A DNA stretch of 64,000 nucleotides from an uncultured Bacteroides sp. (GCA_964518705.1 CAZFGV010000005.1:43676-107675), one strand, 5' to 3'. Shown: positions 5,966-34,882, numbered from the stretch's first letter. Notes: generated by a model from the sequence alone, not told the origin. Program-made: numbers and translations.

Positions 5966-8581
5966 ATGCGTATAAAATTTCTTATTGCACTGCTGACTCT
6001 ACTAACCGTCACTGCCGCTAAAGCTCAAGCGCCTAACGACACTATCTACAGCCCCAAAGTTGTATACTCGGCCATGCCCAAAACTTACGAAATTGCCGAT
6101 ATCGCAATCGAAGGGGCACCGAACTATGACGATTTCATCATCCTCGGTTACGCCGGTCTAAAAGTCGGCGACAGACTGACTATTCCCGGTGATGACATCA
6201 CTAACGCAGTTAAACGATTGATGCGTCAGACTCTGTTCTCGCAAGCTCGCGTCGAACTCGACAAAACCGTCGGCGACAAAGCGTGGTTGCGTATCAAACT
6301 GCGCACTCAGCCGCGTATCGCGGAAGTGAACTATATCGGCGCGAAAAAAGGCGAAATTAAAGACTTGCAAGAACGTTTGCAACTCGTTAAGGGCAACCAA
6401 ATTACGCAAAATATCGTAAACCGTATTATCGCCATTTCTGAAAAATACTATAAAGATAAAGGTTTCGGTAACGCTACGGTAAAAGTTAACCTTCGCGAAG
6501 ACTTATCAAACGCTAACGAAACTTTCGTTGACATCGTTGTTGACAAAAATCAAAAAGTTAAGGTTCACAAAATCTACATCTCAGGCAACGAAGTCCTTTC
6601 TGATGGTGCTATAAAACGTACCATGAAGAAAACCAACGAAAAAGGTAGCCTCGCTAAACTTTTCTCGCAGAAAAAATTCGTAGAAAACGATTATCACGAC
6701 GACTTGAATCGCATCCTCGAAAAATATAACGAAAAAGGTTATCGCGACGCTCGCATCGTGGCTGACTCTGTCGTTACATACAACGAAAAGACTGTCGACG
6801 TTTACATTAACGTTGACGAAGGCCGTCAATACTTTATCAAAGACATCAAATGGGTCGGTAACACCGTATATCCCAACGAAATACTTAACGACTACCTCGG
6901 AATGCAGGCTGGCGACGTTTACGACCAAAAGCAACTTCGCAAACGCCTCACCGACGACGAGGACGCCGTGTCGAACCTTTACATGGACCATGGTTACTTG
7001 TTCTACTCTATCAACCCCATCGAACGCGACATCGACGGTGACTCGATTTCGCTCGAAATGCGTATGATGGAAGGTCCGCAGGCGCGTATTAACAACGTTG
7101 TCATAAACGGTAACGACCACCTTTACGAAAAAGTTATCCGCCGCGAACTGCGTGTTCGTCCGGGCGACCTATTCAGCAAAAGCGACCTCATGCGTTCTGC
7201 TCGCGAAATCGCTCAAACAGGACACTTCAACCCCGAAACAATGGACATCCAGCCGCAGCCTAACGAAGAAAACGGAACCGTGGACATCGTTTTCAATCTC
7301 GAATCTAAGGCTAACGACCAAATCGAATTCTCGCTCGGTTGGGGTCAGACGGGTATTATTGGTAAATTGCAATTGAAATTCACAAACTTCTCTATAAAGA
7401 ACCTCTTCTACCCCAGCACCTACCGAGGCATCATCCCTCAGGGCGAAGGTCAAACTTTCTCTATCAGCGCTCAAACGAACGCTCGATACTATCAAAGTTA
7501 CGCTATCTCGTTCCTCGACCCATGGTTCGGTGGCAAACGTCCTAACTCGCTCTCGGTATCGGCTTACTACAGCCGCCAAACCGGCGTGAACAGCTCGTTC
7601 TACAATAGATCGTGGGCGAACTCGTCTATTTGGAACAGCGGATACGGATACTACCCCGGTTACAGCTACAATGACTACTACGAAAACAGCTACCAAAACT
7701 CTCTCGACCCCAACAAGGTGCTTCAAATGGTGGGTATTAACGTCGGTTTCGGCAAACGTCTTAAATGGCCCGATGACTGGTTTACTTTCACTGCCGAACT
7801 CGGCTACAACTGGTATTACCTCAAAAACTGGGACTACCTATACTATATGAACACCGGTACGTCGAACGCTATCGTCCTCGGCCTTACCTTGGCGCGTAAC
7901 TCTATCGACAACCCCATTTACACACGTAGCGGTTCGCAGTTCTCTCTTAACCTGCAAATCACTCCCCCAGCTTCGCTTTTCACCGGTAAACGTAACTGGA
8001 AAAAACTCTCGGAACAAGGAACCACCGAAAGCAAAAAGCAGCTTTACGAATGGATTGAATATTGGAAATTGCGCTTCAAATCTCGCACTTACACTCCCCT
8101 CTCGACAAGCCAGCAATGGACTCCTGTCTTGATGACCCGATTCGACTTCGGTTTGCTCGGCAGCTTCAATAAATACCTCAAAACACCGTTCGAAACATTC
8201 TATGTCGGCGGTGACGGTATGTCAGGATCTGTTACTTACGCCACTGAAACAATCGCACTTCGCGGTTACGACAACGGTAGCCTCACTCCTTGGACTCGCG
8301 AAGGCCGTGCTTACACTCGCATGGGCGTAGAACTTCACTTCCCCCTAATGCTTCAGCAAAGCACAACAATCTATGCCCTCGCATTCCTCGAAGGTGGTAA
8401 CGCTTGGACTTCTGTCGCCGAATTCAACCCATTCTCACTAAAACGCTCTGCTGGTGCCGGTGTACGTATTCAATTGCCTATGGTAGGTCTTATGGGTATC
8501 GACTGGGCATATGGTTTCGACCGTGTTGAAGGTACTACCGGTGGGTCACACTTCCACTTTATTCTCGGTCAAGAATTCTAA
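5966..8581 (+). CDS. bamA: outer membrane protein assembly factor BamA
   Basis: 871 aa with a signal peptide, POTRA-like repeats, a C-terminal Omp85 barrel and a terminal aromatic residue (ILGQEF). Confidence 0.9.
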   Translation: MRIKFLIALLTLLTVTAAKAQAPNDTIYSPKVVYSAMPKTYEIADIAIEGAPNYDDFIILGYAGLKVGDRLTIPGDDITNAVKRLMRQTLFSQARVELDKTVGDKAWLRIKLRTQPRIAEVNYIGAKKGEIKDLQERLQLVKGNQITQNIVNRIIAISEKYYKDKGFGNATVKVNLREDLSNANETFVDIVVDKNQKVKVHKIYISGNEVLSDGAIKRTMKKTNEKGSLAKLFSQKKFVENDYHDDLNRILEKYNEKGYRDARIVADSVVTYNEKTVDVYINVDEGRQYFIKDIKWVGNTVYPNEILNDYLGMQAGDVYDQKQLRKRLTDDEDAVSNLYMDHGYLFYSINPIERDIDGDSISLEMRMMEGPQARINNVVINGNDHLYEKVIRRELRVRPGDLFSKSDLMRSAREIAQTGHFNPETMDIQPQPNEENGTVDIVFNLESKANDQIEFSLGWGQTGIIGKLQLKFTNFSIKNLFYPSTYRGIIPQGEGQTFSISAQTNARYYQSYAISFLDPWFGGKRPNSLSVSAYYSRQTGVNSSFYNRSWANSSIWNSGYGYYPGYSYNDYYENSYQNSLDPNKVLQMVGINVGFGKRLKWPDDWFTFTAELGYNWYYLKNWDYLYYMNTGTSNAIVLGLTLARNSIDNPIYTRSGSQFSLNLQITPPASLFTGKRNWKKLSEQGTTESKKQLYEWIEYWKLRFKSRTYTPLSTSQQWTPVLMTRFDFGLLGSFNKYLKTPFETFYVGGDGMSGSVTYATETIALRGYDNGSLTPWTREGRAYTRMGVELHFPLMLQQSTTIYALAFLEGGNAWTSVAEFNPFSLKRSAGAGVRIQLPMVGLMGIDWAYGFDRVEGTTGGSHFHFILGQEF

Positions 8582-8639
8582 TAGCACTAAACCTTTACTC
8601 GCCTAAAGCGTCTATACATTAAACACTAAAATTACAGCT

Positions 8640-9155
8640 ATGAAGAAACTCGCTCTTACAATCGTCCTCCTCGTCGCTGCTGCCTTGCCTTCTTTCGCGC
8701 AGAAGTTCGCTATGGTTGACATGGAATACATTTTCAAGAACGTGCCCGCATACGAAATGGCGAACGAACAGCTTAACCAACTTTCGCAACGTTGGCAAAA
8801 AGAAGTCGAAGCCGTTTCTAAAGAAGCTGAAAATCTTTACAACAAATTCCTCGCGGACAAAGTATTCCTTACCGACGAACAATCAAAAAAACGCGAAGAA
8901 GAAATTGTCGCTAAAGAAAAAGAAGTAACAGAATTGCGTTACAAATACTTCGGACCCGAAGGCGAACTATATCAAAAACGCCAATCGCTCCTCAAACCAA
9001 TACAAGACGACGTTTACAACGCCGTTAAAAAAGTTGCCGAAGAACGCGGGTTCCAAGCTATATTCGACAGAGCTTCTGCTTCTGATATCGTTTACGCTTC
9101 GCCGCGTATCGATATTTCAAACGATGTTCTCACCCGTTTGGGCTACTCAAATTAA
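8640..9155 (+). CDS. OmpH/Skp-family periplasmic chaperone
   Basis: 171 aa with a signal peptide and a coiled-coil K/E-rich middle. Canonical position after bamA. Confidence 0.85.
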   Translation: MKKLALTIVLLVAAALPSFAQKFAMVDMEYIFKNVPAYEMANEQLNQLSQRWQKEVEAVSKEAENLYNKFLADKVFLTDEQSKKREEEIVAKEKEVTELRYKYFGPEGELYQKRQSLLKPIQDDVYNAVKKVAEERGFQAIFDRASASDIVYASPRIDISNDVLTRLGYSN

Positions 9156-9207
9156 TTTTGTATATTTGCACTCTCAATTTATTGATAATAACAAAACCTA
9201 AATACTC

Positions 9208-9714
9208 ATGATGCTTAAGAAAATCCTTCTTGCACTCGTAGTTGCGTTGCCTTTCAGCGCACTCGCTCAGAAATTCGGTACTGTTGACCTCCAAACAATC
9301 TACACTGCTATGCCCGAAACAGCAGCTATGGAGACTCAAATCAAAGAAACTTCTCAGAAGTACGAAGCTGAGTTCCAAAAACTTCAGGACGAAGTTAACA
9401 AACTCTACGCCGACTACCAAACAATACAGAACGACCCCAACACTCCCGAATCTATCAAGGAACGTCGTATTCAAGAAATCCAAGAACGCGCTCAGAAAGT
9501 AGAACAGTTCCGCAACACCGCTATGCAAGACATCCAGCGCATGCAAGAACAGCTCATGGCGCCCATCCAAACTAAACTCAACGACGCTGTTAAAGCCGTT
9601 GGCGCTGAAGGTGCTTTCACTTTCATCTTCCCTATGGAACCCGCTATGATCCTTTATCAAGGTGCTGACGTTGTTGACGTTACCCCCCTTGTTCGCACAA
9701 AGCTCGGTATCTAA
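9208..9714 (+). CDS. OmpH/Skp-family periplasmic chaperone (second copy)
   Basis: 168 aa with a signal peptide ending ALAQ and a Q/E-rich coiled coil. Tandem with the first ompH. Confidence 0.85.
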   Translation: MMLKKILLALVVALPFSALAQKFGTVDLQTIYTAMPETAAMETQIKETSQKYEAEFQKLQDEVNKLYADYQTIQNDPNTPESIKERRIQEIQERAQKVEQFRNTAMQDIQRMQEQLMAPIQTKLNDAVKAVGAEGAFTFIFPMEPAMILYQGADVVDVTPLVRTKLGI

Positions 9715-10174: not shown

Positions 10175-10210
10175 CAAAAACAGCCGCCACGAGAAACCCG
10201 TAGCGGCTGT
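10175..10210 (-). terminator. rho-independent terminator of the pilus-type operon
   Basis: On the minus strand, ACAGCCGC / GCGGCTGT stem followed by TTTTTG, about 20 nt after the stop at 10231. Confidence 0.6.
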
Positions 10211-10230
10211 TGTTTATTTATCAACAACTA

Positions 10231-12702
10231 TTAGATAGCTGTACGATTTACTTTATTACCAGAAACAGTTACGCTTGTGCTTTCAAGATTACCGAAAACT
10301 TCAGCAATAGAATTAGCACCACGGCGAGCTGCATAGAAACCGTTAATCTTAGTATCCTTAACAGCACAACCGCTATCAGCGATAGTACCGAGAGGACGAC
10401 CAACGAGACCTGCAACGAAACCTGATTCATTAGAAATAGCATAGTTGCTGATTTCGCAACCTTCTACAGAGCAGTTGGTAAGAGTAAGAGCAAAGCCTTC
10501 AGCTTCAAAACCAACGAGACCTGCAACAGACTGAATACCCTTAACGGTACAGTTCTTAACATGAACGTCAGACATTGTCAACGCAGCGCCATTAACGTCG
10601 CCGATAACAACAGCAGCAAAGCCGTTAGAACCGGCAGGTGCATTATCAACAACAAAGTTTTCGATAGTTACATTCTCAACAGAAGCTAAAGCGCAAGCAT
10701 CGCCCTTAAACAAGCCCATAGTATAGGGATTAGTAGTAGCGAGAACAGCGTTAGACATTGTGTGGCCATAGCCATTGAATGTTGCGCCACCGAGAAGACC
10801 TTCAGCGCCATAGAGTACGTTGCCACCGAAATCGATATCGGCTGTAAGTACAATTTGCTTTCCTGTGAGAAGATCATGGCTCGGAGAAGCGACAGCTGTC
10901 ATCCATGCCCATTCTGATGCGTTGGTAATCATGTACATGTTACCTAACAATTGAGGTTCGCGTACTGTGGTACCGTCCCACAACAAAATCTTTTCGATGG
11001 CAATACCGCTTGTCTGAACTTGAGAAGGATTAGCCTTACCGCCGAGAACTTCAGCTACAGAAGCTTCGCCGCGACGTTCTGTCCAATAACCGCGAATAGT
11101 AGTGTTGAGAACCTTAGTATCTGAGTCTGCAAAAACAACGTCACCAACAGGACGACCAACGAGACCGGCAACATAGCCTGATTCATTAGCGTATGCATAG
11201 TTAGTGATATAGCTTTCTTCTACCGAGCAAGCGCTGAATGTTGCTGTTTCGCCTGCCTTAAGAAAACCTACGATACCACCTACTGCTATGATACCCTTAA
11301 CTGACGCTTTCTTAACATGAACGTTAGTGAATTTAACATCGCTCTGAGCATCACCCATAACAACGCCGGCATAACCATGAATGTTATTACTTTCTACACC
11401 CACTTTATCGTAGTTGTCAATAGTAACGTTTTCGATAGTTACATTTGATACTTCGCTAAGAGTGCACTGATCACCTTTAAAGAGACCTACAGAGTAAGAT
11501 CCGGTAGCATCAAATACGATGTTAGACATTGTGTGAAGCTGACCGTCGAACCATCCTTGGAAACCGAAAATAGGTTTAACAGCATGGCCGTTGAAGTCGA
11601 TGTCAGCAAGGAGTGAAATGTTCTTTGCAGGAAGAGCGCGGTTGTCGTATTGTGTCAACCATGCCCATTCGGCAGCGCTCTTAACCATGTATGTATCGCC
11701 TACAATAGCGGGTTCTGTCGTGGTTTTGCCATCCCACATTACGATATTGTAATCAGGATTTTGGAATTCGCTATCGATACGTACGTTGAAGTGAACTTCG
11801 CCTGTGAGGAACTGACCGATGATGTTGGTACGGTAGTTACGCTGGATAGGCATGTTTTCAAGACCTTGTTTGAGGATAATGTCGTTACCGTTAGAGAGGA
11901 AGGTAAATTCTGCTGATGTAAGAGTTACAGATTCGGGTTCATCTTCACGAGCAGGAAGAACATAGCTCATTGAGAGCCACTTGTATTCTTTACCTTCTAC
12001 CTTAAGGGGTTCTGAAGTAACGATGTTGCTGGCTTCGTAAACGAGTCCTGTGAAATCTGAAACGCTACCGTCAAGAATGTTAAGGGTGTTAGCTACATTA
12101 GAGAAAGTAACTTTTGACTTAGCAACAGTGATGCCGGCTTTTACAGCTTCTGCATAGTCGCTAGTACCTACGTTTACCTGAGCGAAAGGACGGTTGAGCA
12201 CAACGTCATAGTTGGCGTCTCCGCTGATGGTGATTGTTTCTTTTTTGAAGAATGCGTCACGCTTTTCGTCGTTGTTATATGCCACAACTGAAGTTTCGCC
12301 GTCTACGGCAGCATAATGCATCGACACAAGCATTTGATTTTCGTCTGTGCCATAGTCGATGGTGTACGGTGCATCGGGGTGCTGTGCCCAGAATGCTACT
12401 GTATATGTCTGGCCTTTGGCGAGACGAAGGCTGATGGGATGGCCGGTTGTGAGGTCGGTCAAGCCTTCTTCTGTCTTGCTGACTTCTGCAAGACGCTTAC
12501 CGGTTTGGTCGAATACGGCATACACGAGGGTGGTAGCCTGGGTACCATCGCTGATGCTACGTGATGTAACTTCACCGGAGTTGATGTTGAACGTTACGGT
12601 TGCCATGTCGCCGCTATTGGGAGCTGCGAGGTCATCGTTCGAACATGAACTTGCCATTACCATTGCGGTAGCAGCAAAACCTAAAAAAAGTTTCTTGTTC
12701 AT
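10231..12702 (-). CDS. fimbrillin-like lipoprotein fused to two tandem GLUG / beta-helix modules (putative pilus tip adhesin)
   Basis: Lipobox VMASSC. The N-domain is paralogous to the 13657 gene (ATVTF..SR.ISDG, LRL..G.TY.V.FWA, RPFAQVN). Two modules of about 250 aa each start with WDG and carry GLFKGD, VGGIVGF/VAGLVGF and GYVAGLVGRP/GFVAGLVGRP. Confidence 0.75.
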   Translation of the reverse strand: MNKKLFLGFAATAMVMASSCSNDDLAAPNSGDMATVTFNINSGEVTSRSISDGTQATTLVYAVFDQTGKRLAEVSKTEEGLTDLTTGHPISLRLAKGQTYTVAFWAQHPDAPYTIDYGTDENQMLVSMHYAAVDGETSVVAYNNDEKRDAFFKKETITISGDANYDVVLNRPFAQVNVGTSDYAEAVKAGITVAKSKVTFSNVANTLNILDGSVSDFTGLVYEASNIVTSEPLKVEGKEYKWLSMSYVLPAREDEPESVTLTSAEFTFLSNGNDIILKQGLENMPIQRNYRTNIIGQFLTGEVHFNVRIDSEFQNPDYNIVMWDGKTTTEPAIVGDTYMVKSAAEWAWLTQYDNRALPAKNISLLADIDFNGHAVKPIFGFQGWFDGQLHTMSNIVFDATGSYSVGLFKGDQCTLSEVSNVTIENVTIDNYDKVGVESNNIHGYAGVVMGDAQSDVKFTNVHVKKASVKGIIAVGGIVGFLKAGETATFSACSVEESYITNYAYANESGYVAGLVGRPVGDVVFADSDTKVLNTTIRGYWTERRGEASVAEVLGGKANPSQVQTSGIAIEKILLWDGTTVREPQLLGNMYMITNASEWAWMTAVASPSHDLLTGKQIVLTADIDFGGNVLYGAEGLLGGATFNGYGHTMSNAVLATTNPYTMGLFKGDACALASVENVTIENFVVDNAPAGSNGFAAVVIGDVNGAALTMSDVHVKNCTVKGIQSVAGLVGFEAEGFALTLTNCSVEGCEISNYAISNESGFVAGLVGRPLGTIADSGCAVKDTKINGFYAARRGANSIAEVFGNLESTSVTVSGNKVNRTAI

Positions 12703-12766
12703 AAGTTTGAGGTTAGTTAGTAATTATTGTTTGCAAATTCGCTTTCGCGTTTACTATGTGACTTTG

Positions 12767-13654
12767 TTAAAGTTCTTTGTTGTTATCACCTTCGCTATAA
12801 GCGGGTGACATACTGATGGCGCAACTGATTTCACCTGTAACGAGGTCGCCAACAATATTGGTATTTTGGTTTATGCCAAAAGGCACGTTGTCAATTTGTT
12901 TGCTTATCAACACTTCTTCGGCACCTTCGCCTTTGTTTCCGTATACGGTATAGGTAATAGCGGTATTATCTGCTGGAAAGACCATATACGATGCCAAGCT
13001 GTTATATGTCTGGCTGCCGACAGTCATTTGCGTGGTCTGTGCCGGCAAGCTAAGTGTATATTCTTGCGAACCTGATGATGTTTGATTAAGGGCATCAAAT
13101 TTTGAGTTAACATTCAATTTCACATCAACTTTCGTCAATGTATATCCGAGGTCGCTAACGGCTTGTTTGTCAGCAGCGGTGATGCCTAAGTTTAGACGCG
13201 CCATCGGACGAGTCAACACTACTGTATGGTTCGTTCCCTCAGCTCCGGCTGTTGCCTCGACGGTTGCGCTGAAGCATTCGTATGTCGTAACATCTCCGTT
13301 GTAGCTCGCAGGCAAGGCGATATTGGTCATGTTTTCGCAATTGTATGCTTGGCCATTACGGGCAAAGAACGCCACTTGATAGGTATGTCCTTTCACAAGA
13401 CGAGGTGTGTATTTTATCTCGCCACCGGGGATAATATCTATTGTTTTGCGGAGAGCGGCAATTTCGGCGTTGTTCTCAAACACAGCGCAAACAACCTGAT
13501 TAACACTATAATCGGCATCGGCACGGCTACTTACAGCCGTCGGCATCTCGGCGCTAAAGATTACTTCGACTGTCTCGGGCTTTACTATTTCTTCTCCTGC
13601 ACACGACGCTATCAGCATCGGCAAGGCTAGTATGGTAGATTTTAAAGTGCGCAT
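12767..13654 (-). CDS. small fimbrillin-like lipoprotein (candidate stalk or accessory pilin)
   Basis: Lipobox LIASC, VSSR|A site, and KGHTYQVAFFA and LTRPMARLNLG motifs shared with its neighbours. Confidence 0.65.
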   Translation of the reverse strand: MRTLKSTILALPMLIASCAGEEIVKPETVEVIFSAEMPTAVSSRADADYSVNQVVCAVFENNAEIAALRKTIDIIPGGEIKYTPRLVKGHTYQVAFFARNGQAYNCENMTNIALPASYNGDVTTYECFSATVEATAGAEGTNHTVVLTRPMARLNLGITAADKQAVSDLGYTLTKVDVKLNVNSKFDALNQTSSGSQEYTLSLPAQTTQMTVGSQTYNSLASYMVFPADNTAITYTVYGNKGEGAEEVLISKQIDNVPFGINQNTNIVGDLVTGEISCAISMSPAYSEGDNNKEL

Positions 13655-13656
13655 GA

Positions 13657-16272
13657 TTAAGATTTGTTCATTACTACTTTATATTCATCACCATCGACAT
13701 ATAACGTGCCTTTAGTGTCTGTTATAACTACAAGCGAAATATAATAGCAACAGCCCATTAAATCCAGTGTTTTAGACACATAATTTGGCTTAAAAAAGCT
13801 GCCAATATTTTCACTATACGTATAAACATCTTGTGCTCGTCTACCATTCTCTGTATTAAATACATTATTTACTGAAGAACACGAATTTATCCTAATAACC
13901 TCAGCATTTGGTGTACGTATATCTCCTATAAATCCATTTATATGACGTCCGGCTGTCAATATATTATCATCAACGCCTAAACAATAAAAGGTGTTAGCTG
14001 ATGTTTTACAATTTTCAATAGTTGAATTGCCTGCTATAAAACCAATCAAGCCTCCGATTTCGCCATTACTTAGAAATCCCAAATTATCAGTTACCCCTGA
14101 ATTGTAGTTTTCAAAATAACATGATGATACGGAGTTATTTGAACATTCAAGATCTGCAAATATACCTCCGCAAAGACCACCCATTTTATTAACACCATAA
14201 AGGTAGCCGTTTTTAACATTGACATTGTTGATAATAGTTTTTGCATATGCATAACCTCGCAGAGTTCCAACATACGCATCACCGGAACTCTCCTCATGTG
14301 TCACACGAATATCAGCACCATCAAATGTTACATTTTCGAAAGTCGATGCACAACTTTCGCTTTTTACAAAACCACCATAATGATTATCTCGAATTGAGAT
14401 ATTATAGATAGTTTTATAGTTGCCTTCAAGTTTTGTTAAGGTATTCAATGGTGTAAATATATTCATACGGACTCCGGCTTTCGATGCTCCATCCAAGTCG
14501 TATTCCATATCAACATTTTCCATCAACTTAATAGTTCCGACATTACCGCCTTGAAGTTTTGCTAGGTCGAAGGCTGAGTAAATCAGTTTCGCACCATTAT
14601 CGGTCAATGGTTCGACAGTTTTTGAGCCATCCCAGCAAGGGATAAATCTGCTACCGCCATAATTTACTGTGCCTCGGTTATAGGTTTCATCGCCGAGCCA
14701 GCCGTTATATTTGCTATAGTCTGTTTCTGCGAGCCATGCACCTTCGTTGCCTTCGCGGTAAGGCGATGCAAAGTCGGCTATTGTAACGTTGTCTGCCACA
14801 GTACAAGTAGCGTCAAAGCTAACAGTTTCAGCATTATCATAACCGCTCAACAAGCCCACGAATTTACCTTCGCTCTTCGAGCCTGCGATTGTAGTGCTTG
14901 CGATTGTCGAGTTCGAGAAAGTCAAAGCAAGAGTCTCGGTGCGATCTTTTTCCGATTTGCGAACCACATAACCGACAAAACCGCCGGCGGCGCCGTTAGT
15001 AGTCGACACAACGGCATTCTTAACCGCCACGCCGGTAAACGCGCCCGAGCCTTTAAGTGTGTTCACTAACGCACCCACATGAGTAGCAGCGCCGATCATT
15101 GTCAAGCCGTCAACGGTCAAATTTTTAACAGTCAGGTTGGTAACGTCGCCAAACAAACCGCCGCCATTGATGTTGAGATTCTTTACTGTATGTTCTCCGC
15201 CTTCGATAGTACTGCCAACAGGCAATTTAACCGTCTGAAGCGATTTATTGTTCATATCCAAATCTTTCGTAATCACGAAAGTGCGATTCGGTTCAAGCGT
15301 TGTTCCGTTCTGAGCAAGCCATGCGAGGTTCGCTGTACTTGAAATGATATATCTGTTTTGCTCGTCGGTGCTCAAAGGCAATGATACTGTGCCATCCCAC
15401 TTATCTTCAGGAGCTTGCACGATAGTGCCGCAAATATTTGTGCGCTTATTAGCTGCGACAACAATATCATTAACAGTCTTATTCGTAATCTCTGTGTTGC
15501 CATCTTTTAGCACACAGGTTGCAGATACTTTACCGTCCTGAGGCACAAAGATATAGTTCGATGCTACATAATAATATGCAGTTACTCCGACAGTGAGTTC
15601 TTCGTCAGTAAATCTGTTAAAGGTAAATTTAACATTATCAACGCTACCTGTCGCCGTGCCTGAGAGCAAGCTAAACTTATTAGGCAGAGATGTATACGTG
15701 ATTTCGCAAGAATGAGTTCCGTTAACGGGTTTAGTAGCATTATCGGCAAAATTGACCTGGGCAAACGGACGTGTCAAAGTAACATTTTGCGAAGAGTTAT
15801 TACCGGAAATAGTAACTGATTCTTTGGCATAGAATGCATCAAGTTGCTCAATATTGCTAAAGTTGTCTATAATAGCGTAGTTGTCATAATCTACCGACAC
15901 CTCGCCGGCATCGGACAATGTATAAGCACAACTGCTATTACTACTATTATACGCCCAGAAAATCACTGAGTAAGTGCGATTTGACAACAGGCGCAACTTC
16001 AAATTATTACCTCCTGCTGGATTAAATGCTTGGTCCGGAATTCTCTGAACTAATTCTTGTCCGTCAAAGACAAGCACGTCAATTTTATTAACAGATAGTC
16101 CATCACTTATCGCACGCGACTCAATACCGGCATCAAGGTCGGCATCAAATGTTACTGTTGCATATTCGTCTCCTTCCGATACTATTTCAACGTCATCAGA
16201 ACAAGATCCTAAAGTAAAGCAACTAAATACAGAAATGATAGTACAAAAAGAGAGAAATCTATTATGAATCAT
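13657..16272 (-). CDS. fimbrillin-like lipoprotein fused to two GLUG / beta-helix modules (putative pilus adhesin)
   Basis: Start trimmed to the ATG at 16272 (MIHNRF...FTLGSC lipobox). N-domain has ESR|A and LTRPFAQVNF. The C-terminal part has WDG-initiated modules with GGGLFGD, AAGGFVGY, MGGLCGG and IGGLIGF..IENC (GLUG-like). Confidence 0.75.
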   Translation of the reverse strand: MIHNRFLSFCTIISVFSCFTLGSCSDDVEIVSEGDEYATVTFDADLDAGIESRAISDGLSVNKIDVLVFDGQELVQRIPDQAFNPAGGNNLKLRLLSNRTYSVIFWAYNSSNSSCAYTLSDAGEVSVDYDNYAIIDNFSNIEQLDAFYAKESVTISGNNSSQNVTLTRPFAQVNFADNATKPVNGTHSCEITYTSLPNKFSLLSGTATGSVDNVKFTFNRFTDEELTVGVTAYYYVASNYIFVPQDGKVSATCVLKDGNTEITNKTVNDIVVAANKRTNICGTIVQAPEDKWDGTVSLPLSTDEQNRYIISSTANLAWLAQNGTTLEPNRTFVITKDLDMNNKSLQTVKLPVGSTIEGGEHTVKNLNINGGGLFGDVTNLTVKNLTVDGLTMIGAATHVGALVNTLKGSGAFTGVAVKNAVVSTTNGAAGGFVGYVVRKSEKDRTETLALTFSNSTIASTTIAGSKSEGKFVGLLSGYDNAETVSFDATCTVADNVTIADFASPYREGNEGAWLAETDYSKYNGWLGDETYNRGTVNYGGSRFIPCWDGSKTVEPLTDNGAKLIYSAFDLAKLQGGNVGTIKLMENVDMEYDLDGASKAGVRMNIFTPLNTLTKLEGNYKTIYNISIRDNHYGGFVKSESCASTFENVTFDGADIRVTHEESSGDAYVGTLRGYAYAKTIINNVNVKNGYLYGVNKMGGLCGGIFADLECSNNSVSSCYFENYNSGVTDNLGFLSNGEIGGLIGFIAGNSTIENCKTSANTFYCLGVDDNILTAGRHINGFIGDIRTPNAEVIRINSCSSVNNVFNTENGRRAQDVYTYSENIGSFFKPNYVSKTLDLMGCCYYISLVVITDTKGTLYVDGDEYKVVMNKS

Positions 16273-16336
16273 ATCAATCAACAGAATCAATTGAATCAAT
16301 CAAAAAAGAAATCAAAGAAAATATTAAAAGTAGATA

Positions 16337-17377
16337 TTAAAAGTAGATATTAATATCACCATTGAACTTGGTGTTAATAGACACACCACCTTGAGCATTC
16401 ATCATCAAGAACTTACCTTTCATGATAGTATGTTTGCTACGGCGCAATGGCACAGAAATGACATTAGTACGAGAAATTTGTTCATTATCCTCATCGAGGA
16501 TCGCAATCTGAAGTGACACAGCTGATTCAGTGCCGTTAACGAACACATAATCAAAACCGAGCGAAGCTTCTTTATCGCTAAGGCTCAAGACACGACCTTG
16601 GAAGGCTACACCTACGGTTGAGTCGACGGGCTTGTCGGTAAACATATTGTATGTGTTCGGCATGAATCCGGCATAATAGAACACCACTTTATATTTGCTG
16701 ATATCAATACCTTTTGATGGTGCTTGTTCGGGTAATTCACCACGACCGATCATGCGACGAACTTCTTTGTCGATAAATTCATCAACGTCAGTGGTAACAA
16801 ATTCAAATTTTGCAAGCGGGCGTTCCATATCCACTTGGATAGTAGGAGCGACTTGCTCTTTCATCGTTGACACTAACTTAATGTCACTTATACCACGGAA
16901 CGCGTCACGATAGTCATTGTTACCTTCATGTTCGCCAACGAGCTTGATAGCGGCATAGTCTTTGGCATCATAGAACTTATGCGAGCTACCCAAATCGGCG
17001 ATATCAGACCATACCATAACGCTATAATCACCGGCAGGCACTTCGACATAGAAATTGGCGTCATAACCTTCAGCTAAATCGCGAGTGAATACAAATTCAT
17101 GCGAAGCTTCGCCACGTGATGCTTTCGAGTTCTGTGTATAGAAACGTATAATATACCGCATATCGCCTTCTGTCTGTACGCTCTTTGAAGGTACTTCCGT
17201 ACGGGTATCCTCGATAGGATATACGAACTGCGGCATGTCGGTAGAATATCGTAGCTGTATGTTGAGCCCCACTTTCTCGGGAACGTCGGGGAACTCGTGA
17301 ACATCGCACGATGAGAACATCGAAAGCATGGCTATGCACCCGATCAGTCGAATTATATGTTGCACGATAGTTCTCAT
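16337..17377 (-). CDS. FimB/Mfa2-like pilus anchor/terminator lipoprotein
   Basis: Lipobox MFSSC, 346 aa, MERPLAKFEF motif homologous to the RP.A motif of the downstream pilins. It occupies the position typical of Mfa2-family genes. Confidence 0.6.
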   Translation of the reverse strand: MRTIVQHIIRLIGCIAMLSMFSSCDVHEFPDVPEKVGLNIQLRYSTDMPQFVYPIEDTRTEVPSKSVQTEGDMRYIIRFYTQNSKASRGEASHEFVFTRDLAEGYDANFYVEVPAGDYSVMVWSDIADLGSSHKFYDAKDYAAIKLVGEHEGNNDYRDAFRGISDIKLVSTMKEQVAPTIQVDMERPLAKFEFVTTDVDEFIDKEVRRMIGRGELPEQAPSKGIDISKYKVVFYYAGFMPNTYNMFTDKPVDSTVGVAFQGRVLSLSDKEASLGFDYVFVNGTESAVSLQIAILDEDNEQISRTNVISVPLRRSKHTIMKGKFLMMNAQGGVSINTKFNGDINIYF

Positions 17378-17387
17378 TGTTGGTTCC

Positions 17388-18608
17388 TTATTTATTCAAA
17401 TTAAATGAGTACGAAACGGTAACGGCAGCCTGGTCGAGTCCGATATAAGTTTTCTTTGTGGTATCGATAAGGAGTCCGTTAGGCTCGTTATAAAATTTGT
17501 CGTAATTAATAGAGTATGCACCGGCACCAACGGTAAATTCGAGATGCCAATGTTTGTTGGCGCTGATGGGCATGCGATAGCCCACTGCTATACCGCCACC
17601 AAGAGCAGGGCTGCTACCATCATGGTCCTGGAAACGATATTTATTGCCGTCAAGAGCGAGATTGAACCACGCAAGACCGAAATGAGCGCCGCCAAACCAG
17701 CCTTCGTTATCTTCTGACAACCAATAACGTACTTCGGGCTGCAAAGCGAGGGTACGGAATTTACGGGTCGATTTAAGATAGTTCCACGATGACCAATATA
17801 CCGGCAATGTTGCCGACCAGTGCTTGGCGATGTCTATTTCTACTGCAATATTTGATATCGCAAATCCCCATGCGAGGGCGTTTGTCTTAACGTGCAATTT
17901 ACGTCGCCATACCGGAGGCTCTTCTGCTACGGTGTCGGTGGGCATAACAAAAATTGTTGTAGCTTCCGACTCGTCTATTGCAGGCAACACGATAGGCGCC
18001 GGGGTACGTTCTATCTTCTGCTTATATGTTACAAAGATAGCATATGCATTACGCATCGGGCCGAAATATGCGTCAATAATCTTACGCCACACGCGACCGC
18101 GATCGAGCTTTTGCAATTTTACGATACGATGGTCGATTTTCTGATTGGTGTAATAATATTGTACCAATTGAGGCTCTTCGCGCAGAATACTCATTATGGT
18201 ATCTTTATATTCAATATCAGATTGAGCTATAGCACGAGTAAAGTCGATCCATGGAATGTAACTTTCGTCACGAGTGATAATGCTATCGGGGATGTCGATT
18301 GAATTACGAACATATTTTTCGAGTTGCGACAAACGTTGACGACCGAGGCGAAGATTGAGATCGTTACTACCTTCGGGCGAAGCGGAGCCGCAGAACGATA
18401 TGCCGGTTATGCTTATCGTACTATCGCGTCGAACGGCGCTTAAAAAGGTATCTAAGGCATGCAGGGTGGAATCGTTCGACTGAAATGTTGAGTCAATTTC
18501 TGTGCTGTTCACGCGGAAGTTAAGACAAAACTCGTATTGCTTCGCCTGACAATATGCGAAACTAGAGCTTAACAACGCAGAGATTAACAAGATATACTTC
18601 AGTATCAT
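17388..18608 (-). CDS. OmpA-like/DUF3868-type N-domain plus DUF3575-type outer-membrane beta-barrel protein
   Basis: Start trimmed from the GTG at 18662 to the ATG at 18608 (MILKYILLISALL signal peptide). ISFCGSASPEGS..N..LGRQR resembles an OmpA-like domain. The C-terminal half (KTNALAWG..., GGAHFGL..., GIAVGYRM...VSYSF) looks like a DUF3575 barrel. Confidence 0.7.
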   Translation of the reverse strand: MILKYILLISALLSSSFAYCQAKQYEFCLNFRVNSTEIDSTFQSNDSTLHALDTFLSAVRRDSTISITGISFCGSASPEGSNDLNLRLGRQRLSQLEKYVRNSIDIPDSIITRDESYIPWIDFTRAIAQSDIEYKDTIMSILREEPQLVQYYYTNQKIDHRIVKLQKLDRGRVWRKIIDAYFGPMRNAYAIFVTYKQKIERTPAPIVLPAIDESEATTIFVMPTDTVAEEPPVWRRKLHVKTNALAWGFAISNIAVEIDIAKHWSATLPVYWSSWNYLKSTRKFRTLALQPEVRYWLSEDNEGWFGGAHFGLAWFNLALDGNKYRFQDHDGSSPALGGGIAVGYRMPISANKHWHLEFTVGAGAYSINYDKFYNEPNGLLIDTTKKTYIGLDQAAVTVSYSFNLNK

Positions 18609-18666
18609 CCTAAGGTATTTATCTAACACTTTTATCTCCTCTTTTAAGGAGGCTATTTTCACGTGG

Positions 18667-18674
18667 CAAATTTA
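18667..18674 (-). promoter_or_regulatory. candidate -7 box (TAAATTTG on minus strand) for the pilus-type operon
   Basis: Matches TAnnTTTG about 55 nt upstream of the ATG at 18608. I saw no clear -33 TTTG. Confidence 0.3.
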
Positions 18675-18860: not shown

Positions 18861-18996
18861 TTTGACCGGAGTTCCAGAGCGTGGCCTTTGGTGATTGGTC
18901 TATGGTCCTATGGTAAGCTTTGGTGCTTTGGTTTAAATCCACAAAGGCACGTTGCAAAAGTAACGCTCTGGAACTCCGGCTAAATTTTTCTGATAG
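18861..18996. repeat. composite repeat R2 (same family as R1)
   Basis: 17-bp perfect inverted repeat CCGGAGTTCCAGAGCGT (18866-18882) / ACGCTCTGGAACTCCGG (18963-18979) flanks an 80-nt CTATGG/CTTTGG core. Blocks GCAAAAGTAACGCTCTGG and AAATTTTTCTGATAG are identical to R1 but in reverse complement. Confidence 0.85.
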
Positions 18997-19037: not shown

Positions 19038-19070
19038 CAAAAAGAGCCCGGCATTCGATTGCCGGGCTCT
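19038..19070 (-). terminator. rho-independent terminator after pbuX
   Basis: 11-bp stem AGAGCCCGGCA / TGCCGGGCTCT followed by TTTTTG on the minus strand. Confidence 0.7.
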
Positions 19071-21568: not shown

Positions 21569-23845
21569 TTACCTCAATGAGAACTTAAGTTTCGTAAGAG
21601 ATGCGGCATTCGGTCCAACCATAACTTCGAAGTCGCCGGGTTCGGCTACAAATTCGAGATTATAATTGTAAAAACGCAACACGTCGGGAGTGATTTCAAA
21701 ATCAACTTTGCGACTTTCACCGGGGGCGAGAGTGATGCGATCGAAATGCTTTAATTCTGCGACAGGGCGAGAGATAGACGCCTGCAAATCTCGAATATAG
21801 AATTGCACTACTTCCGTACCTTCACGCTTACCGGTATTGGTAACCACTACTGATGCCGTGATTTTTCCGTCGGAGGTAAGGTCGGCAGAATCTATTGCAA
21901 AATCGGAATATGCAAATGTTGTATAGCTCAAGCCATAGCCGAACGGATAAAGGGGTGTATTGTCTACATCAATATAATTGCTGCGATATTTTTGGAAATC
22001 CGTTGTCCATTCGCCTTTAGGACGGCCGGTATTCAGATGATTATAGTAAATTGGAATTTGACCTTCATTTCTAGGCATTGTAGCAGTCAAACGTCCCGAC
22101 GGCACAACATCGCCGAATACCACATCAGCAATAGCATCTGCCGATTCGCTGCCGCCAAACCATACATTCAAAATAGCAGGCACGTTCTCTGACTCCCATG
22201 ACATAACCGTCGGACGGCCCGAGAAATTTAACATCACCACAGGCTTGCCTGTTGCCAACAAAGCTTCTAGGAGTTTACGCTGACAGTCGGGCAATGTTAA
22301 CGATGAACGCGATGATGATTCGCCCGATGATTCTGAGGCTTCGCCTACTGCTGCGACAATAACATCAACTCCTTCTGCGGCTTTCAACGCCTCGGCAAGA
22401 AGTTCTTCGTCAGAACGGCTATCTCGCATATCTCGTCCGAAAATTGTTGCAGCGGCTTCGATGACTGAATCGGTATAAACATTAGCACCCTTGGCATAAC
22501 GTATTTCTGCCTTGTCACCTACTGCGTCGGTAAAACCTTGAAGGAGAGTTTTAGGCGCTGTCAAATCGGCAGCGACACTCCAAGTGCCGGGCATATTAGA
22601 TGCTGTATTTGCCATCGGTCCGGTTAGCAATATTTTGCCCTTACGTTCCAAAGGCAACACATTGCCTTCATTCTTTAAAAGTACGAAGGTTTCTGTTGCT
22701 ATACGACGTGCATCAGCACGGTGTTCTGCTGTATAAATATCTGTCTTTTCGCGAGATACGTCATTATACTTATACGGATTTTCAAACAATCCCAAGCGAT
22801 ATTTAGCTTCTAGGACTCTACGGCAAGCGGCATCGATTTCTTCGATAGTTACCCTACCCTGCTTCAACGCTTCTTCGAGGACAGACACAAACGCGCCTGC
22901 CGACATATCCATATCAGTGCCGGCCTTGAGACTGTTAACGGTAGCCGTTTCAAAATCACCAACACCATGAACGGGAATTTCGGCGATTGAGGCATAGTCT
23001 GTAACGACAAAACCGCCAAAGCCCCATTGTTTTCTTAACACATCATCAATAAGCCATTTATTCGCTGTTGCAGGCAAGCCGTCAACGACATTAAACGACG
23101 TCATAAAGCTACCTGCTCCGGCTTCAACACCGGCTTGATAAGGTGCGAAGTATTCGTTATACATACGCAAACGACTCATGTCGACAGTGTTATAATCACG
23201 TCCTGCCTCAGCTGCACCGTAAAGAGCAAAATGCTTTACGCACGCCATGATTTCGTCTTTTGCCGACATATCCTTACCTTGATAACCGCGAATCATAGCT
23301 TTAGCAACGCAGCTACCCAAGTATGGGTCTTCACCCGAGCCTTCGGACATACGTCCCCAACGCGGGTCGCGACTGATGTCTACCATAGGGCTGAATGTCC
23401 AGCACACACCGCCTGCCGACGCTTCTATTGCTGCTACACGGGCTGAGCGTTCGATAGCTTCCATATCCCACGAGCATGACAACGCCAAGGGGATAGGAAA
23501 GACGGTTTCATAGCCATGAATCACGTCCATACCTATAATAAGAGGAATATGCAAACGTGTATTTTCAACGGCAAGACGCTGCAATTCACGAATTTTTTCT
23601 GCGCCTTTGATATTGAATGTACCGCCAACCTTTCCGGCAACGACAGCTGCACCGATATTACTATTCTGTGGCTGTCCGGTAACAATGTCATCCGACGGCG
23701 GCAAATTTATTTGGCCTAATTTTTCTTGAAGTGTCATTTGACCCATAAGGTCGGAAATGAACTTATCCATCTTGGCATCTGTCGTTGCTGATGCCGAAAT
23801 GAGCGCCAACATCGCGGCAGCGACTGTTGTTATCTGTTTTTTCAT
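21569..23845 (-). CDS. GH3 beta-glucosidase (periplasmic)
   Basis: 758 aa with a signal peptide and GH3 motifs (GFGGFVVTDY nucleophile region, KHF.LYG, C-terminal Fn3-like domain). Confidence 0.85.
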   Translation of the reverse strand: MKKQITTVAAAMLALISASATTDAKMDKFISDLMGQMTLQEKLGQINLPPSDDIVTGQPQNSNIGAAVVAGKVGGTFNIKGAEKIRELQRLAVENTRLHIPLIIGMDVIHGYETVFPIPLALSCSWDMEAIERSARVAAIEASAGGVCWTFSPMVDISRDPRWGRMSEGSGEDPYLGSCVAKAMIRGYQGKDMSAKDEIMACVKHFALYGAAEAGRDYNTVDMSRLRMYNEYFAPYQAGVEAGAGSFMTSFNVVDGLPATANKWLIDDVLRKQWGFGGFVVTDYASIAEIPVHGVGDFETATVNSLKAGTDMDMSAGAFVSVLEEALKQGRVTIEEIDAACRRVLEAKYRLGLFENPYKYNDVSREKTDIYTAEHRADARRIATETFVLLKNEGNVLPLERKGKILLTGPMANTASNMPGTWSVAADLTAPKTLLQGFTDAVGDKAEIRYAKGANVYTDSVIEAAATIFGRDMRDSRSDEELLAEALKAAEGVDVIVAAVGEASESSGESSSRSSLTLPDCQRKLLEALLATGKPVVMLNFSGRPTVMSWESENVPAILNVWFGGSESADAIADVVFGDVVPSGRLTATMPRNEGQIPIYYNHLNTGRPKGEWTTDFQKYRSNYIDVDNTPLYPFGYGLSYTTFAYSDFAIDSADLTSDGKITASVVVTNTGKREGTEVVQFYIRDLQASISRPVAELKHFDRITLAPGESRKVDFEITPDVLRFYNYNLEFVAEPGDFEVMVGPNAASLTKLKFSLR

Positions 23846-26064: not shown

Positions 26065-27308
26065 TATTCTATATTTAGTTTGATTGAGCGAATATATGAT
26101 TTTTGAGGAGTGCAATTTTCAAATCGGCTAGCTTCAACAAAAGACTCCAGCACCGCCTTTGCTGCTGCGCGATCAGGACGTGCGTCGCGGATGTCTTTAT
26201 ACGTTTTACGAGGTGCTTCCGAGAACGATACCACCAAGCTATCCCATGCCTCCGGGCGAGTGATGCCCATCATACAAGAGCCATCAACCTTTTTATAAGG
26301 CCAGAAGGTGTAACCGATATTATTTTCTTCAAGCACATCGCAGAATGCACTTTGCCATTCATCAGTATTATGACCGATTTCGCCCATATACATAGGCAAG
26401 CCGGTGCTGTCGCGGAAGGCGATAAAGGAGTTTATAGCTTCTTTTGTTGCATCTCCGCCATAGCGATGGCAGGTATACATGATTTTATTGTCAAAAGTCC
26501 AATCGGCAAAGGGTTCGAAGTTGCCATTCCATTGCGAGCCGCCGAGAAGGATGATATGATTGGTATCGACTGTTCGAATAGAATCTACCGCACGGCGATA
26601 TAGCGGTTCGAGAGCGGCATTAAGTGCCGGTACTTCTTCAAAATACGGTGCGATGGGCTCGTTCATAAGCTCATAGCCTAATATCTGAGGCTCATTAACA
26701 TATCGCGCCGCTATTTGTTTCCAGATATTACAAAAGAGCTGTTGCGATGTTTCGCTTTCAAACAGCCACGGATAACCATGACTGTCGTCGATATTATCGC
26801 CTGTTTGTCCACCGGGGGCATCATGCATATCTAGAATTAGATACATACCTGCATCTCGGCACCAGCTTACCAAGCTGTCGATACGGTCAAAACCTTCGCC
26901 CGTATTTACCGTGCTGCCCATATAATCTTCATCGGTAAAAAGCTTATAATTGAACGGCAAACGGATGGTATTCGCACCTGTTGATGCTATAAAATCAATA
27001 TCGGCGCGAGTTATATAATTGTCTTTAAATTGTTTCCAAAATTGTGCGGCGTCGTCAGGTCCTACCAACTCACAAAGCATACGCTCTATAAAATGAGGCG
27101 AGTTTGTGGCTTGAAAACCAAACATATATCCTTCCGGATTAAGCCAATTGCCGAGGTTTGTTCCTCGTATAAAAAATTTAGAGCCATCGGGGGCTATAAG
27201 ATCTTTGCCCTCTATGCGCATAAAATCGTTCGGCGACACTGTCTCTTCTTTTGGTGCTGTGCATGCAAAAGCTAGAGTTGCCAGCGCACTATATAGCAGT
27301 TTTTTCAT
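26064..27308 (-). CDS. GH5-family beta-glycanase (cellulase superfamily)
   Basis: Signal/lipoprotein N-terminus (LAFAC). Acid/base motif ELMNEP and nucleophile region YMGEIGH. Confidence 0.75.
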   Translation of the reverse strand: MKKLLYSALATLAFACTAPKEETVSPNDFMRIEGKDLIAPDGSKFFIRGTNLGNWLNPEGYMFGFQATNSPHFIERMLCELVGPDDAAQFWKQFKDNYITRADIDFIASTGANTIRLPFNYKLFTDEDYMGSTVNTGEGFDRIDSLVSWCRDAGMYLILDMHDAPGGQTGDNIDDSHGYPWLFESETSQQLFCNIWKQIAARYVNEPQILGYELMNEPIAPYFEEVPALNAALEPLYRRAVDSIRTVDTNHIILLGGSQWNGNFEPFADWTFDNKIMYTCHRYGGDATKEAINSFIAFRDSTGLPMYMGEIGHNTDEWQSAFCDVLEENNIGYTFWPYKKVDGSCMMGITRPEAWDSLVVSFSEAPRKTYKDIRDARPDRAAAKAVLESFVEASRFENCTPQKSYIRSIKLNIE

Positions 27309-27359
27309 TAGTTCTTAGATTGAAGGTTTAACGGAGGTCGTCGTTTTAAAATCTGTGTT

Positions 27360-27382
27360 CCTGCCACTTTAATCGTGGCAGG
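27360..27382 (-). other. intra-operon hairpin between GH16 and GH5
   Basis: 8-bp stem CCTGCCAC / GTGGCAGG. The T-run is displaced by about 9 nt, so at best this is a weak terminator or a processing site. Confidence 0.25.
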
Positions 27383-27421
27383 AGCAACAGCTTCGAAATA
27401 TAGAGAATAATCAATACTATC

Positions 27422-28525: not shown

Positions 28526-28584
28526 AGCTAATTAAAAAACGCATGGCCCGACCAAATATTACTCGGGCCATGCGCTGTAATTCA

Positions 28585-29994: not shown

Positions 29995-30003
29995 AGCTTC
30001 GGA

Positions 30004-31521: not shown

Positions 31522-31540
31522 GATGTTTTAGATAATAAGA

Positions 31541-34687: not shown

Positions 34688-34727
34688 AGATTTACTAAGG
34701 TTTGGTTGATATTTTTATTACCGATGG

Positions 34728-34735
34728 CAAAATTA
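34728..34735 (-). promoter_or_regulatory. candidate -7 box (TAATTTTG on minus strand) for the susC-led PUL operon
   Basis: Matches TAnnTTTG about 40 nt upstream of the ATG at 34687. Confidence 0.35.
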
Positions 34736-34882
34736 TAAAATATGTTTACACGCGCGAACACGTGGTAAGGGGATAAAGTAAACCACGCTTTTAGCTAACT
34801 AACTAAAAACGTGGTTTTTATGCTTTGTAAAAGTAGGCGTTTTGGTAAGGTGTAGTAAATCTCGTATTAAGGTCTTTTTACA

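Follow-up and report, generated by a model that had tools for sequence, protein, structure and literature searches.

What does a pilus-type operon assemble if it encodes no stalk-sized pilin and if its two largest subunits end in tandem beta-helix modules? This question is raised by a locus in a stretch of 64,000 nucleotides from an uncultured Bacteroides sp. (GCA_964518705.1 CAZFGV010000005.1:43676-107675; hereafter the window), in which five open reading frames (ORFs), denoted G1 to G5 in the order of transcription, are arranged head to tail on the minus strand between positions 10231 and 18662. Among the adhesive organelles of gut and oral Bacteroidales, type V pili are the chief ones, and their mechanism is known mostly from two pili of Porphyromonas gingivalis. 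The ligands of many Bacteroides pilus operons and the way in which the bases of these pili sit in the outer membrane are largely unknown (PMC12632263).

All five ORFs were recovered where an earlier note, made from the sequence alone, had placed a tightly packed, co-directional set of genes: G1 (17388-18662, 424 amino acids (aa) when counted from GTG), G2 (16337-17377, 346 aa), G3 (13657-16272, 871 aa counted from ATG), G4 (12767-13654, 295 aa) and G5 (10231-12702, 823 aa), separated by gaps of 10, 64, 2 and 64 nucleotides, respectively. With moderate confidence, we interpret this operon as encoding a short anchor-(adaptor)-tip adhesive complex, which would be assembled through strand exchange triggered by an arginine-specific protease, beside a small outer membrane barrel with a periplasmic OmpA-like domain. 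The analysis itself shows the order of the genes, their homology, the class of fold, the lipoboxes, the conservation of an arginine and the synteny. The kind of system is already known, in that the operon belongs to a widespread, unstudied branch of the type V pilus family; undescribed in the literature found are the DUF6562 branch, its stalk-lessness, the tandem beta-helix heads and the fused OmpA-like and DUF3575 partner.

Pilin-type domains of four lipoproteins

G2, G3, G4 and G5 each contain a lipobox cysteine (FSSC, C24; LGSC, C24; IASC, C18; and ASSC, C20, respectively), which is nearly invariant across the families. The N-terminal domains (N-domains) of the three distal lipoproteins are homologous to one another, as had been read from a shared sequence pattern: in BLASTP comparisons, G3 aligns with G5 across the full length (8e-39), and G4, which consists of a pilin-type N-domain only, without C-terminal modules (C-modules), aligns with the N-domain of G5 (aa 1-320, 11743-12702, minus strand; 7e-14) and with that of G3 (aa 1-290, 15403-16272, minus strand; 6e-12). 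The short motif reported to be common to all four lipoproteins is present in each of them, namely MERPLAKFEF in G2 (184-193), LTRPFAQVNF in G3 (166-175), LTRPMARLNL in G4 (147-156) and LNRPFAQVNV in G5 (169-178), and neither family alignment shows any variation in its R-P-x-A core; the other motifs quoted in the earlier note were found as well.

G2 is a member of Pfam family DUF6562 (PF20200; 1.8e-79, 267.8 bits, against a gathering cut-off of 25 bits), which also matches the N-domain of G5 (4.2e-12, 46.6 bits); G3 and G4, though BLASTP homologues of G5, give no match to this family at E<=0.1. G2 can be aligned with the G5 N-domain directly (BLASTP, 3e-5), and the families of the two align end to end (hhalign 98.2%, E 4.9e-14, 292 columns). 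The earlier note had described G2 as an Mfa2-like anchor lipoprotein; it is a lipoprotein, and the likeness to Mfa2 holds at the level of the family, in which 20 of the 38 G2 homologues also match Pfam Mfa2 (PF08842; best 1.3e-7), whereas G2 itself is recognised as DUF6562 only.

The fold of these domains was assessed with an AlphaFold2 model of G5, derived from an alignment of 41 sequences and with a mean predicted local distance difference test (pLDDT) score of 80. In a Foldseek search of the PDB, this model matches structures of the Mfa/FimA kind almost exclusively, in agreement with the suggestion of fimbrillin-like N-domains: of the 34 matches at E<=1e-3, 30 are to fimbrial, adhesin or pilin structures of Bacteroidales, among them BT1062 (3gf8; 3.7e-8, template modelling (TM) score 0.56), Mfa3 (6.9e-8), the FimA prepilin (5.6e-6), Mfa2 (1.5e-5), Mfa4 (7e-4), BDI_3522 and BT2657, and about 20 Bacteroidales pilin structures are matched with probability 1.0. 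The two-domain (two-lobed), transthyretin-like beta-sandwich fold is assigned to G5 by predicted structure, to G3 and G4 by BLASTP and to G2 by hhalign. Because the G5 model matches pilins and G2 homologues match the Mfa2 profile, DUF6562 is placed in the type V pilin superfamily, of which it is, judged from the model, a remote branch without a solved member; the Pfam family thereby gains a structural and functional placement. A search of NCBIfam returned nothing useful.

Pfam Mfa2, formerly DUF1812, was founded on the structure of BT1062, and accessory genes, one of which encodes a non-lipoprotein, were reported in 2010 to be conserved beside the Mfa2- and Mfa1-like genes at BT1062-BT1068 (PMC2954217). 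The BT1062 operon, like the one described here, pairs Mfa2-like lipoproteins with accessory genes, and no structure matches the G5 N-domain better than that of BT1062. The two differ in that BT1062-BT1068 includes an Mfa1-like stalk homologue, BT1063, whereas the subunits in the window are DUF6562 proteins, with G2 falling below PF08842.

Candidate cleavage sites, terminal strands and related loci

In the type V mechanism, pilins arrive at the cell surface in lipoprotein form, the loop past the N-terminal anchor strand is cut by an Arg-specific protease (at R46 of FimA and R49 of Mfa1), and the anchor strand is replaced by the C-terminal donor strands of the next subunit; the anchor subunit, which has no cleavage site, retains its lipid, and tip pilins have no donor strands (PMC13655056). 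Surface export as such is signalled by CS(D/E)2 (PMC6222051), which CSDD in G3 and CSNDD in G5 resemble. In the three distal lipoproteins, an arginine is found 26 to 29 residues past the lipid cysteine (R53 of G3, in ESR|AISDG; R44 of G4; R48 of G5, in TSR|SISDG). At the G5 position, none of the 41 G5 relatives has a residue other than Arg, and among 24 short subunits (G4 was aligned with 23 short relatives) the same position is occupied by Arg in 23 and by Lys in one. R48 falls, in the G5 model, within a loop of lower confidence between strands 33-41 and 58-64, and Arg48, Arg53 and Arg44 are candidate cleavage sites. The loop between strands 1 and 2 of 38 G2 relatives contains no conserved basic residue, and a conserved two-strand C-terminal tail, GGVSINTKFNGDINIYF, ends the G2 chain; G2 fits the anchor role because the conserved Arg is absent from this loop in its relatives, and it is a candidate anchor subunit.

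A conserved terminal element with the consensus FNIxIDPxYDGDxN is placed differently in each subunit. It forms the end of G2 (GGVSINTKFNGDINIYF) and nearly ends the G4 chain (GEISCAISMSPAYSEGDNNKEL; strand GEISCAISMS...), the terminal strand GEVHFNVRIDSEF of G5 is internal and followed by 500 aa, and the 'FNxxID..F' strand is missing from G3, as well as from the G3 orthologues in two of the related loci described below, L012 and L013. From these patterns, G3 appears to be a pure acceptor of the tip type and G5 appears tip-like. A cleavage-type Arg and a free C-terminal strand occur together in G4 only, which makes it a candidate adaptor or mini-stalk, and its orthologues in L012 and L013 keep both features.

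A mechanism can be proposed from these observations, in which cleavage, strand exchange, the order of subunits, adhesion and the role of G1 are inferred. G2 to G5 would be exported as lipoproteins and flipped to the cell surface, where G3, G4 and G5 would be cut past the conserved Arg in the loop behind the N-terminal 'anchor strand', probably by a surface Arg-specific protease, clostripain-like in Bacteroides. Cleavage would free a groove that the free C-terminal strands of a donor subunit could then fill. G2, because it has no conserved cleavage site, would keep its lipid and act as the membrane anchor and final donor; G4, having a cleavage Arg and a free C-terminal strand, could sit between anchor and tip; and G3 and G5 would be tip-type acceptors, the C-termini of which, made of two tandem beta-helix (GLUG/M26_N-like) modules, would project outward for binding.

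The likeness to the Mfa1-5 and FimA-E systems of P. gingivalis comprises lipoprotein subunits with a two-lobed beta-sandwich pilin fold encoded in one operon, an Arg in the loop past the first strand whose spacing from the lipid Cys is almost identical, an anchor-type subunit that lacks this Arg and putative tip-type subunits without a free donor strand (PMC13655056). Unlike these systems, the operon has no stalk gene of FimA or Mfa1 size, and sequence similarity of its products to PDB entries is undetectable with hidden Markov models; furthermore, it starts with an OmpA-like and DUF3575 gene and has the anchor ahead of the other subunits, whereas in mfa and fim the stalk gene comes first.

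Synteny in the Bacteroidales, a survey of which the earlier note had suggested, was examined by scanning one genome per species for loci defined by relatives of G5. The scan yielded 555 loci, the best of which are only 38-42% identical to G5, in Alistipes, Bacteroides, Phocaeicola, Prevotella, Muribaculaceae, Paludibacteraceae, Dysgonomonas and others. Gene order was read in the best 80 of the 555 loci and runs G1, G2, an optional short subunit and one to five large subunits. The G2-G3-G4-G5 order of the window is reproduced exactly in L012 and L013. G1 immediately precedes G2 in 44 of the 47 loci with enough upstream sequence (a count that includes L009 and L061, where the ORF caller overextended a G2-like ORF), and in 29 of these 44 pairs the two genes overlap by 4 nucleotides. 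Modules recognisably similar to those of G3 or G5 are found in 39 of 112 large subunits. A stalk-size pilin occurs neither in the operon, as had been noticed, nor in the best 80 related loci, and the stalk-less order is found again in other genomes. The commonest short subunit (about 270-290 aa; Bacteroides, Phocaeicola and Dysgonomonas) stops directly after an RSNIAG motif; truncated short subunits of this kind are present in L017, L019-L021, L024-L027, L030, L041, L044, L055, L056 and L062.

The same set of observations bears on an alternative in which the large proteins are monomeric surface lipoproteins, the pilin-like N-domain serving only as a lipid-anchored spacer by which the beta-helix modules are kept on the surface of the cell or of outer membrane vesicles. 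There would be neither strand exchange nor polymerisation, and the conserved Arg would be structural. The absence of a stalk pilin from the operon and from the best 80 loci is consistent with such monomers, as are the internal position of the terminal strand in nearly all large subunits and the CSDD and CSNDD sequences, which are like the lipoprotein export signal and typical of any surface or vesicle lipoprotein (PMC6222051). In addition, a study of diversity-generating retroelements (DGRs) describes pilin-tip-like proteins that are left out of pili (bioRxiv 10.1101/2024.11.15.621889). The monomer explanation, however, leaves unaccounted for an Arg that all 41 of 41 relatives have at the FimA/Mfa1 cleavage position, within a loop of low confidence, and that is absent in G2, as well as a cargo-less Mfa2-like subunit with a conserved tail that is always the first lipoprotein and is coupled to G1. 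On balance we consider it unlikely, albeit the main rival of the strand-exchange complex.

At the other extreme, G4, with its 295 aa, could polymerise as the compact stalk of a true long fimbria with G3 or G5 as tip and G2 as base. The combination of a cleavage-type Arg and a free C-terminal beta-strand, confined to G4 and found likewise in its L012 and L013 orthologues, is what such a fimbria would call for. G4, however, falls far short of FimA or Mfa1 in length, and past the single strand its tail is polar; moreover, most related loci either have no short subunit or have one devoid of the strand, which argues that polymerisation is not general to this operon type. A long fimbria appears distinctly improbable.

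Several observations weigh against the anchor-(adaptor)-tip complex itself. TM-scores of the G5 model with type V pilins are only 0.4-0.56, and PDB sequence searches with each protein singly and with the G2 and G5 family profiles gave chance-level matches only, so that the link to pilins is carried by predicted structure and by a sub-threshold Pfam overlap; G2 does not match Pfam Mfa2 at E<=1. Nearly all large subunits of the related loci contain the terminal strand internally, where it is highly conserved, and it may therefore be a fixed structural strand. The C-terminal tail of G4, PAYSEGDNNKEL, is polar relative to the Mfa1 donor strands. The commonest Bacteroides short subunit has no C-terminal strand; a stalk role of the short subunit is therefore not general, and such loci have two acceptor-type subunits and one donor, the anchor. 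No gene for an Arg-specific protease was found in the window. Finally, a literature search retrieved no paper on DUF6562 and none on GLUG modules combined with fimbriae or on a beta-helix tip.

Beta-helix modules and the barrel protein

The C-terminal part of each large subunit consists of two modules with WDG starts, at residues 292 and 547 of G3 and 323 and 575 of G5. Module a of G3 (aa 291-545, 14638-15402) is of the beta-helix type and aligns with module a of G5 (aa 321-574, 10981-11742); module b of G3 (aa 546-871 plus stop, 13657-14637), which is Cys-rich and contains the GLUG-like sequence IGGLIGF, aligns with module b of G5 (aa 575-823 plus stop, 10231-10980; all on the minus strand). 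The two G5 modules, both of the right-handed beta-helix type, are 47% identical to each other (1e-68), and each coil of the C-modules has one repeat of the G-L-x-G glycine motifs. Residues 321-823 of G5 were modelled separately (pLDDT 90.9); the model has the regular strands of 3-5 residues of a beta-helix, and all but one of the 50 Foldseek matches listed are parallel beta-helix proteins. The best match is 3n6z, a 'putative IgA1 protease' of B. ovatus (1.6e-4, probability 1.0, TM-score 0.36); further matches (TM-scores 0.1-0.27) include lyases of polysaccharide lyase family 6 (PL6), a fucoidan lyase, a glycoside hydrolase of family 110 (GH110), AlgE epimerases, tailspikes and the adhesins PfbA and SRRP. 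The model thus supports the right-handed beta-helix fold class, with no enzymatic family, and only the fold class is assigned because the TM-scores are low (0.1-0.36).

The view of the large subunits as fusions to GLUG beta-helices stands as regards the beta-helix, through the model and Foldseek, and as regards GLUG it stands in the relatives only. In G3, Pfam Glug (PF07581) scores 15.5 bits (E 0.024), below the 20.5 cut-off, G5 has no Glug match, and Pectate_lyase_5 in module b of G5 also falls below the cut-off (E 7e-4). Among the 41 G5 relatives, Glug is found in 13 (best 6.5e-7) and Peptidase_M26_N (PF05342) in five (best 3.7e-9), and large subunits of other loci match Glug, M26_N or 'pectate lyase-like adhesive domain'; given these matches, the label of GLUG-type beta-helix modules, taken from sequence profiles, appears right at the family level.

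The Foldseek matches to PL6 alginate lyases, the fucoidan lyase FdlA, GH110, AlgE epimerases and phage tailspike depolymerases could also be taken to mean that the modules are surface enzymes (polysaccharide lyase, glycosidase or epimerase) and that the operon serves glycan degradation or matrix remodelling, the more so as a polysaccharide utilization locus (PUL) of beta-glucan type lies 3 kb off, at 21.5-36.6 kb. These matches, however, have TM-scores of only 0.1-0.27 and root-mean-square deviations of 17-24 A, as befits a generic beta-helix shape, and the protein matched best, 3n6z, is of the GLUG type and uncharacterised. The Pfam hits are to Glug, Peptidase_M26_N and 'pectate lyase-like adhesive domain', with none to a catalytic family, and the operon has its own putative promoter and terminators, separate from the PUL. 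An enzymatic role is accordingly judged very unlikely.

BACOVA_03286 (3n6z) and the N-terminal region of streptococcal IgA1 protease resemble the C-modules, the former as their best structural match and both through the Glug/M26_N domains detected in G5 relatives; unlike these proteins, the modules in the window lie below the Pfam cut-offs, are accompanied by no protease domain and are fused to a pilin domain. Mfa5 carries a von Willebrand-type domain, whereas the large subunits described here bear tandem beta-helix modules. Fusion of a pilin to a C-terminal binding domain is not exotic as such: in BovFim1C/4EPS and in the DGR-diversified BfrT, BthT and BunT, a pilin domain is likewise followed by a C-terminal binding head, and the genes occupy the distal end of operons in which anchor-type subunits are also encoded (PMC12632263). 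Those proteins have globular or C-type-lectin heads and belong to operons with a stalk, whereas in the window each head is made of two beta-helix modules of about 250 aa, there are two such subunits and there is no stalk.

Length variation of G5 was observed in two settings. In a metagenome contig (SRR19576299; L081, 7522-9993), the G5 gene is two single-nucleotide polymorphisms away from window 10231-12702; one of them, G to A at nucleotide 1793, turns a Trp codon into a stop, so that G5 is called as 597 + 223 aa and most of the second beta-helix module is removed. The 90% cluster of G5 includes variants of 810, 824, 764 and 656 aa.

The first gene of the operon encodes a protein of a different kind. 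The GTG start of the 424-aa ORF (18662) lies just 4 nucleotides downstream of a -7 box at 18667-18674, and for this reason the start of G1 was moved to the ATG at 18608. With this start the signal peptide is normal (MILKYILLISALLSSSFAYCQA) and agrees with the starts of homologues. The true start is probably this ATG, the 424-aa product being 18 residues too long; the resulting protein (17388-18608, minus strand, 406 aa) is a secreted, non-lipoprotein outer membrane protein. In the family alignment, the signal peptide is followed by a domain with the OmpA_C pattern, a helical region, a linker and a C-terminal DUF3575 beta-barrel; the helical region is conserved, the linker is Pro/Glu-rich and variable in length, and the OmpA_C-like domain is degenerate.

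Of the description of G1 as an OmpA-like/DUF3868 and DUF3575 barrel protein, the DUF3575 part holds: the match of G1 to this family (PF12099) spans aa 254-420 of the 424-aa ORF at 7.3e-36 and 123.4 bits (gathering cut-off 21.1 bits), and all 28 G1 homologues match it, 14 of the 28 also matching Pfam OMP_b-brl. The OmpA-like part is weakly represented, with Pfam OmpA matched in 4 of the 28 homologues (best 4.5e-5) and not in G1 itself, and with weak matches of the G1 family profile to OmpA-like domains in the PDB (Omp38, 0.026; OprF, 0.053; YfiB; RmpM; E 0.026-0.7). DUF3868 has to be dropped, as it gives no match at E<=1 in G1 or in 27 homologues. G1 can be regarded, on sequence grounds, as an OmpA with inverted domain order, that is, with an N-terminal OmpA-like domain and a C-terminal barrel. 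It shares with OmpA and OprF a small beta-barrel, a putative OmpA_C-like domain and a Pro-rich hinge, and differs from them in the inverted order, the weak OmpA-like signal, the DUF3575 barrel and a gene dedicated to a fimbrial-type operon. Genes of the DUF3868 and DUF3575 families have been described near Mfa-type genes at BT4225-BT4234 (PMC10434189).

In the proposed complex, G1 would be translationally coupled to G2 and would be of the inverted-OmpA type, with a periplasmic OmpA-like domain, a Pro-rich linker and the small DUF3575 barrel; it would probably form the outer membrane base, possibly tethered to peptidoglycan. It would not be a pilin pore, since its barrel of about 170 residues, judged from barrels of OmpA size, appears too small to pass folded pilins. 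Taken further, DUF6562 operons could represent a distinct stalk-less class of type V systems, in which an Mfa2-like base that keeps its lipid captures one beta-helix adhesin directly through strand exchange, optionally by way of one adaptor, and G1 is an obligatory partner by which the base is held in the outer membrane and linked to the cell wall. This joint claim is advanced tentatively and, as a whole, is doubtful; if true, G1 would be the first protein assigned to the outer membrane side of type V pilus biogenesis or anchoring. The operon type is common (555 loci) and of a fixed, simple make-up, with a barrel protein, an anchor and one to a few tips, and because the stalk is absent it offers a minimal system for anchor-to-tip strand exchange, for the role of the DUF3575 partner and for the ligands of GLUG-type beta-helices.

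Transcription signals and surroundings of the operon

The operon is bounded by a promoter-like box and a terminator of its own, as the sequence had already suggested. The box, TAAATTTG (18667-18674, minus strand), is of the Bacteroides -7 type with the consensus TAnnTTTG, and its function as a promoter is inferred from position alone; TAnnTTTG is enriched in the window (79 matches versus 50.6 +/- 7.3 expected), and a sigma-70 promoter scan was uninformative (26 sites versus 20.8 expected). The intrinsic terminator (10179-10211, minus strand) begins 20 nucleotides past the G5 stop and has a 15-bp stem with 9 GC pairs followed by TTTTGT. Upstream, the terminator of a permease gene (19043-19070, minus strand; 11-bp stem with 8 GC pairs, then TTTTTG) is predicted to shield the operon against transcriptional read-through.

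A long imperfect inverted repeat or hairpin (18861-18984, minus strand) separates the permease terminator from the G1 promoter box, with 30-nucleotide arms that are 83% complementary and a 16-bp perfect core, CCGGAGTTCCAGAGCG. As RNA it folds at -51.4 kcal/mol (z -6.6), a second TAnnTTTG match is located inside it (18955-18962), and an Rfam search matched no family. A phase-variable (invertible) promoter at this site was considered and rejected: there is no evidence for inversion, because the orientation is identical in four independent metagenome contigs.

The surroundings are those of an ordinary chromosome, with pgi, murI, uppS, bamA and two skp genes on one side and, on the other, a xanthine/uracil permease gene (Pfam Xan_ur_permease, 1e-76), xpt and the PUL; no integrase, transposase or other mobile-element genes are present among the ORFs scanned in the window. 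The operon locus was found again at about 99% identity in several metagenome assemblies. A Muribaculaceae metagenome-assembled genome is represented in the 90%-identity cluster of the RpoA encoded in the window, and the chromosome is probably that of a gut member of this family. bamA and the two tandem skp/ompH genes (5966-9714, plus strand) converge on the 3' end of the operon, an adjacency that is also kept in metagenome contigs L081-L083; the nearness of these outer membrane biogenesis genes to the operon is probably a coincidence. The PUL (21569-36616, minus strand), which begins about 3 kb upstream of the promoter end of the operon and looks like a beta-glucan-type locus, encodes two GH3 proteins, a GH5 protein, a GH16 protein with a BACON domain, SusD-like and SusC-like proteins, a DUF6377 protein and a 469-aa protein without a Pfam match. 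Two separate genes of the lipopolysaccharide-transport type, encoding an OstA_2/LptD_N protein and an LptD_2 protein, are located farther on, at 40729-42405 and 55356-58217 (minus strand).

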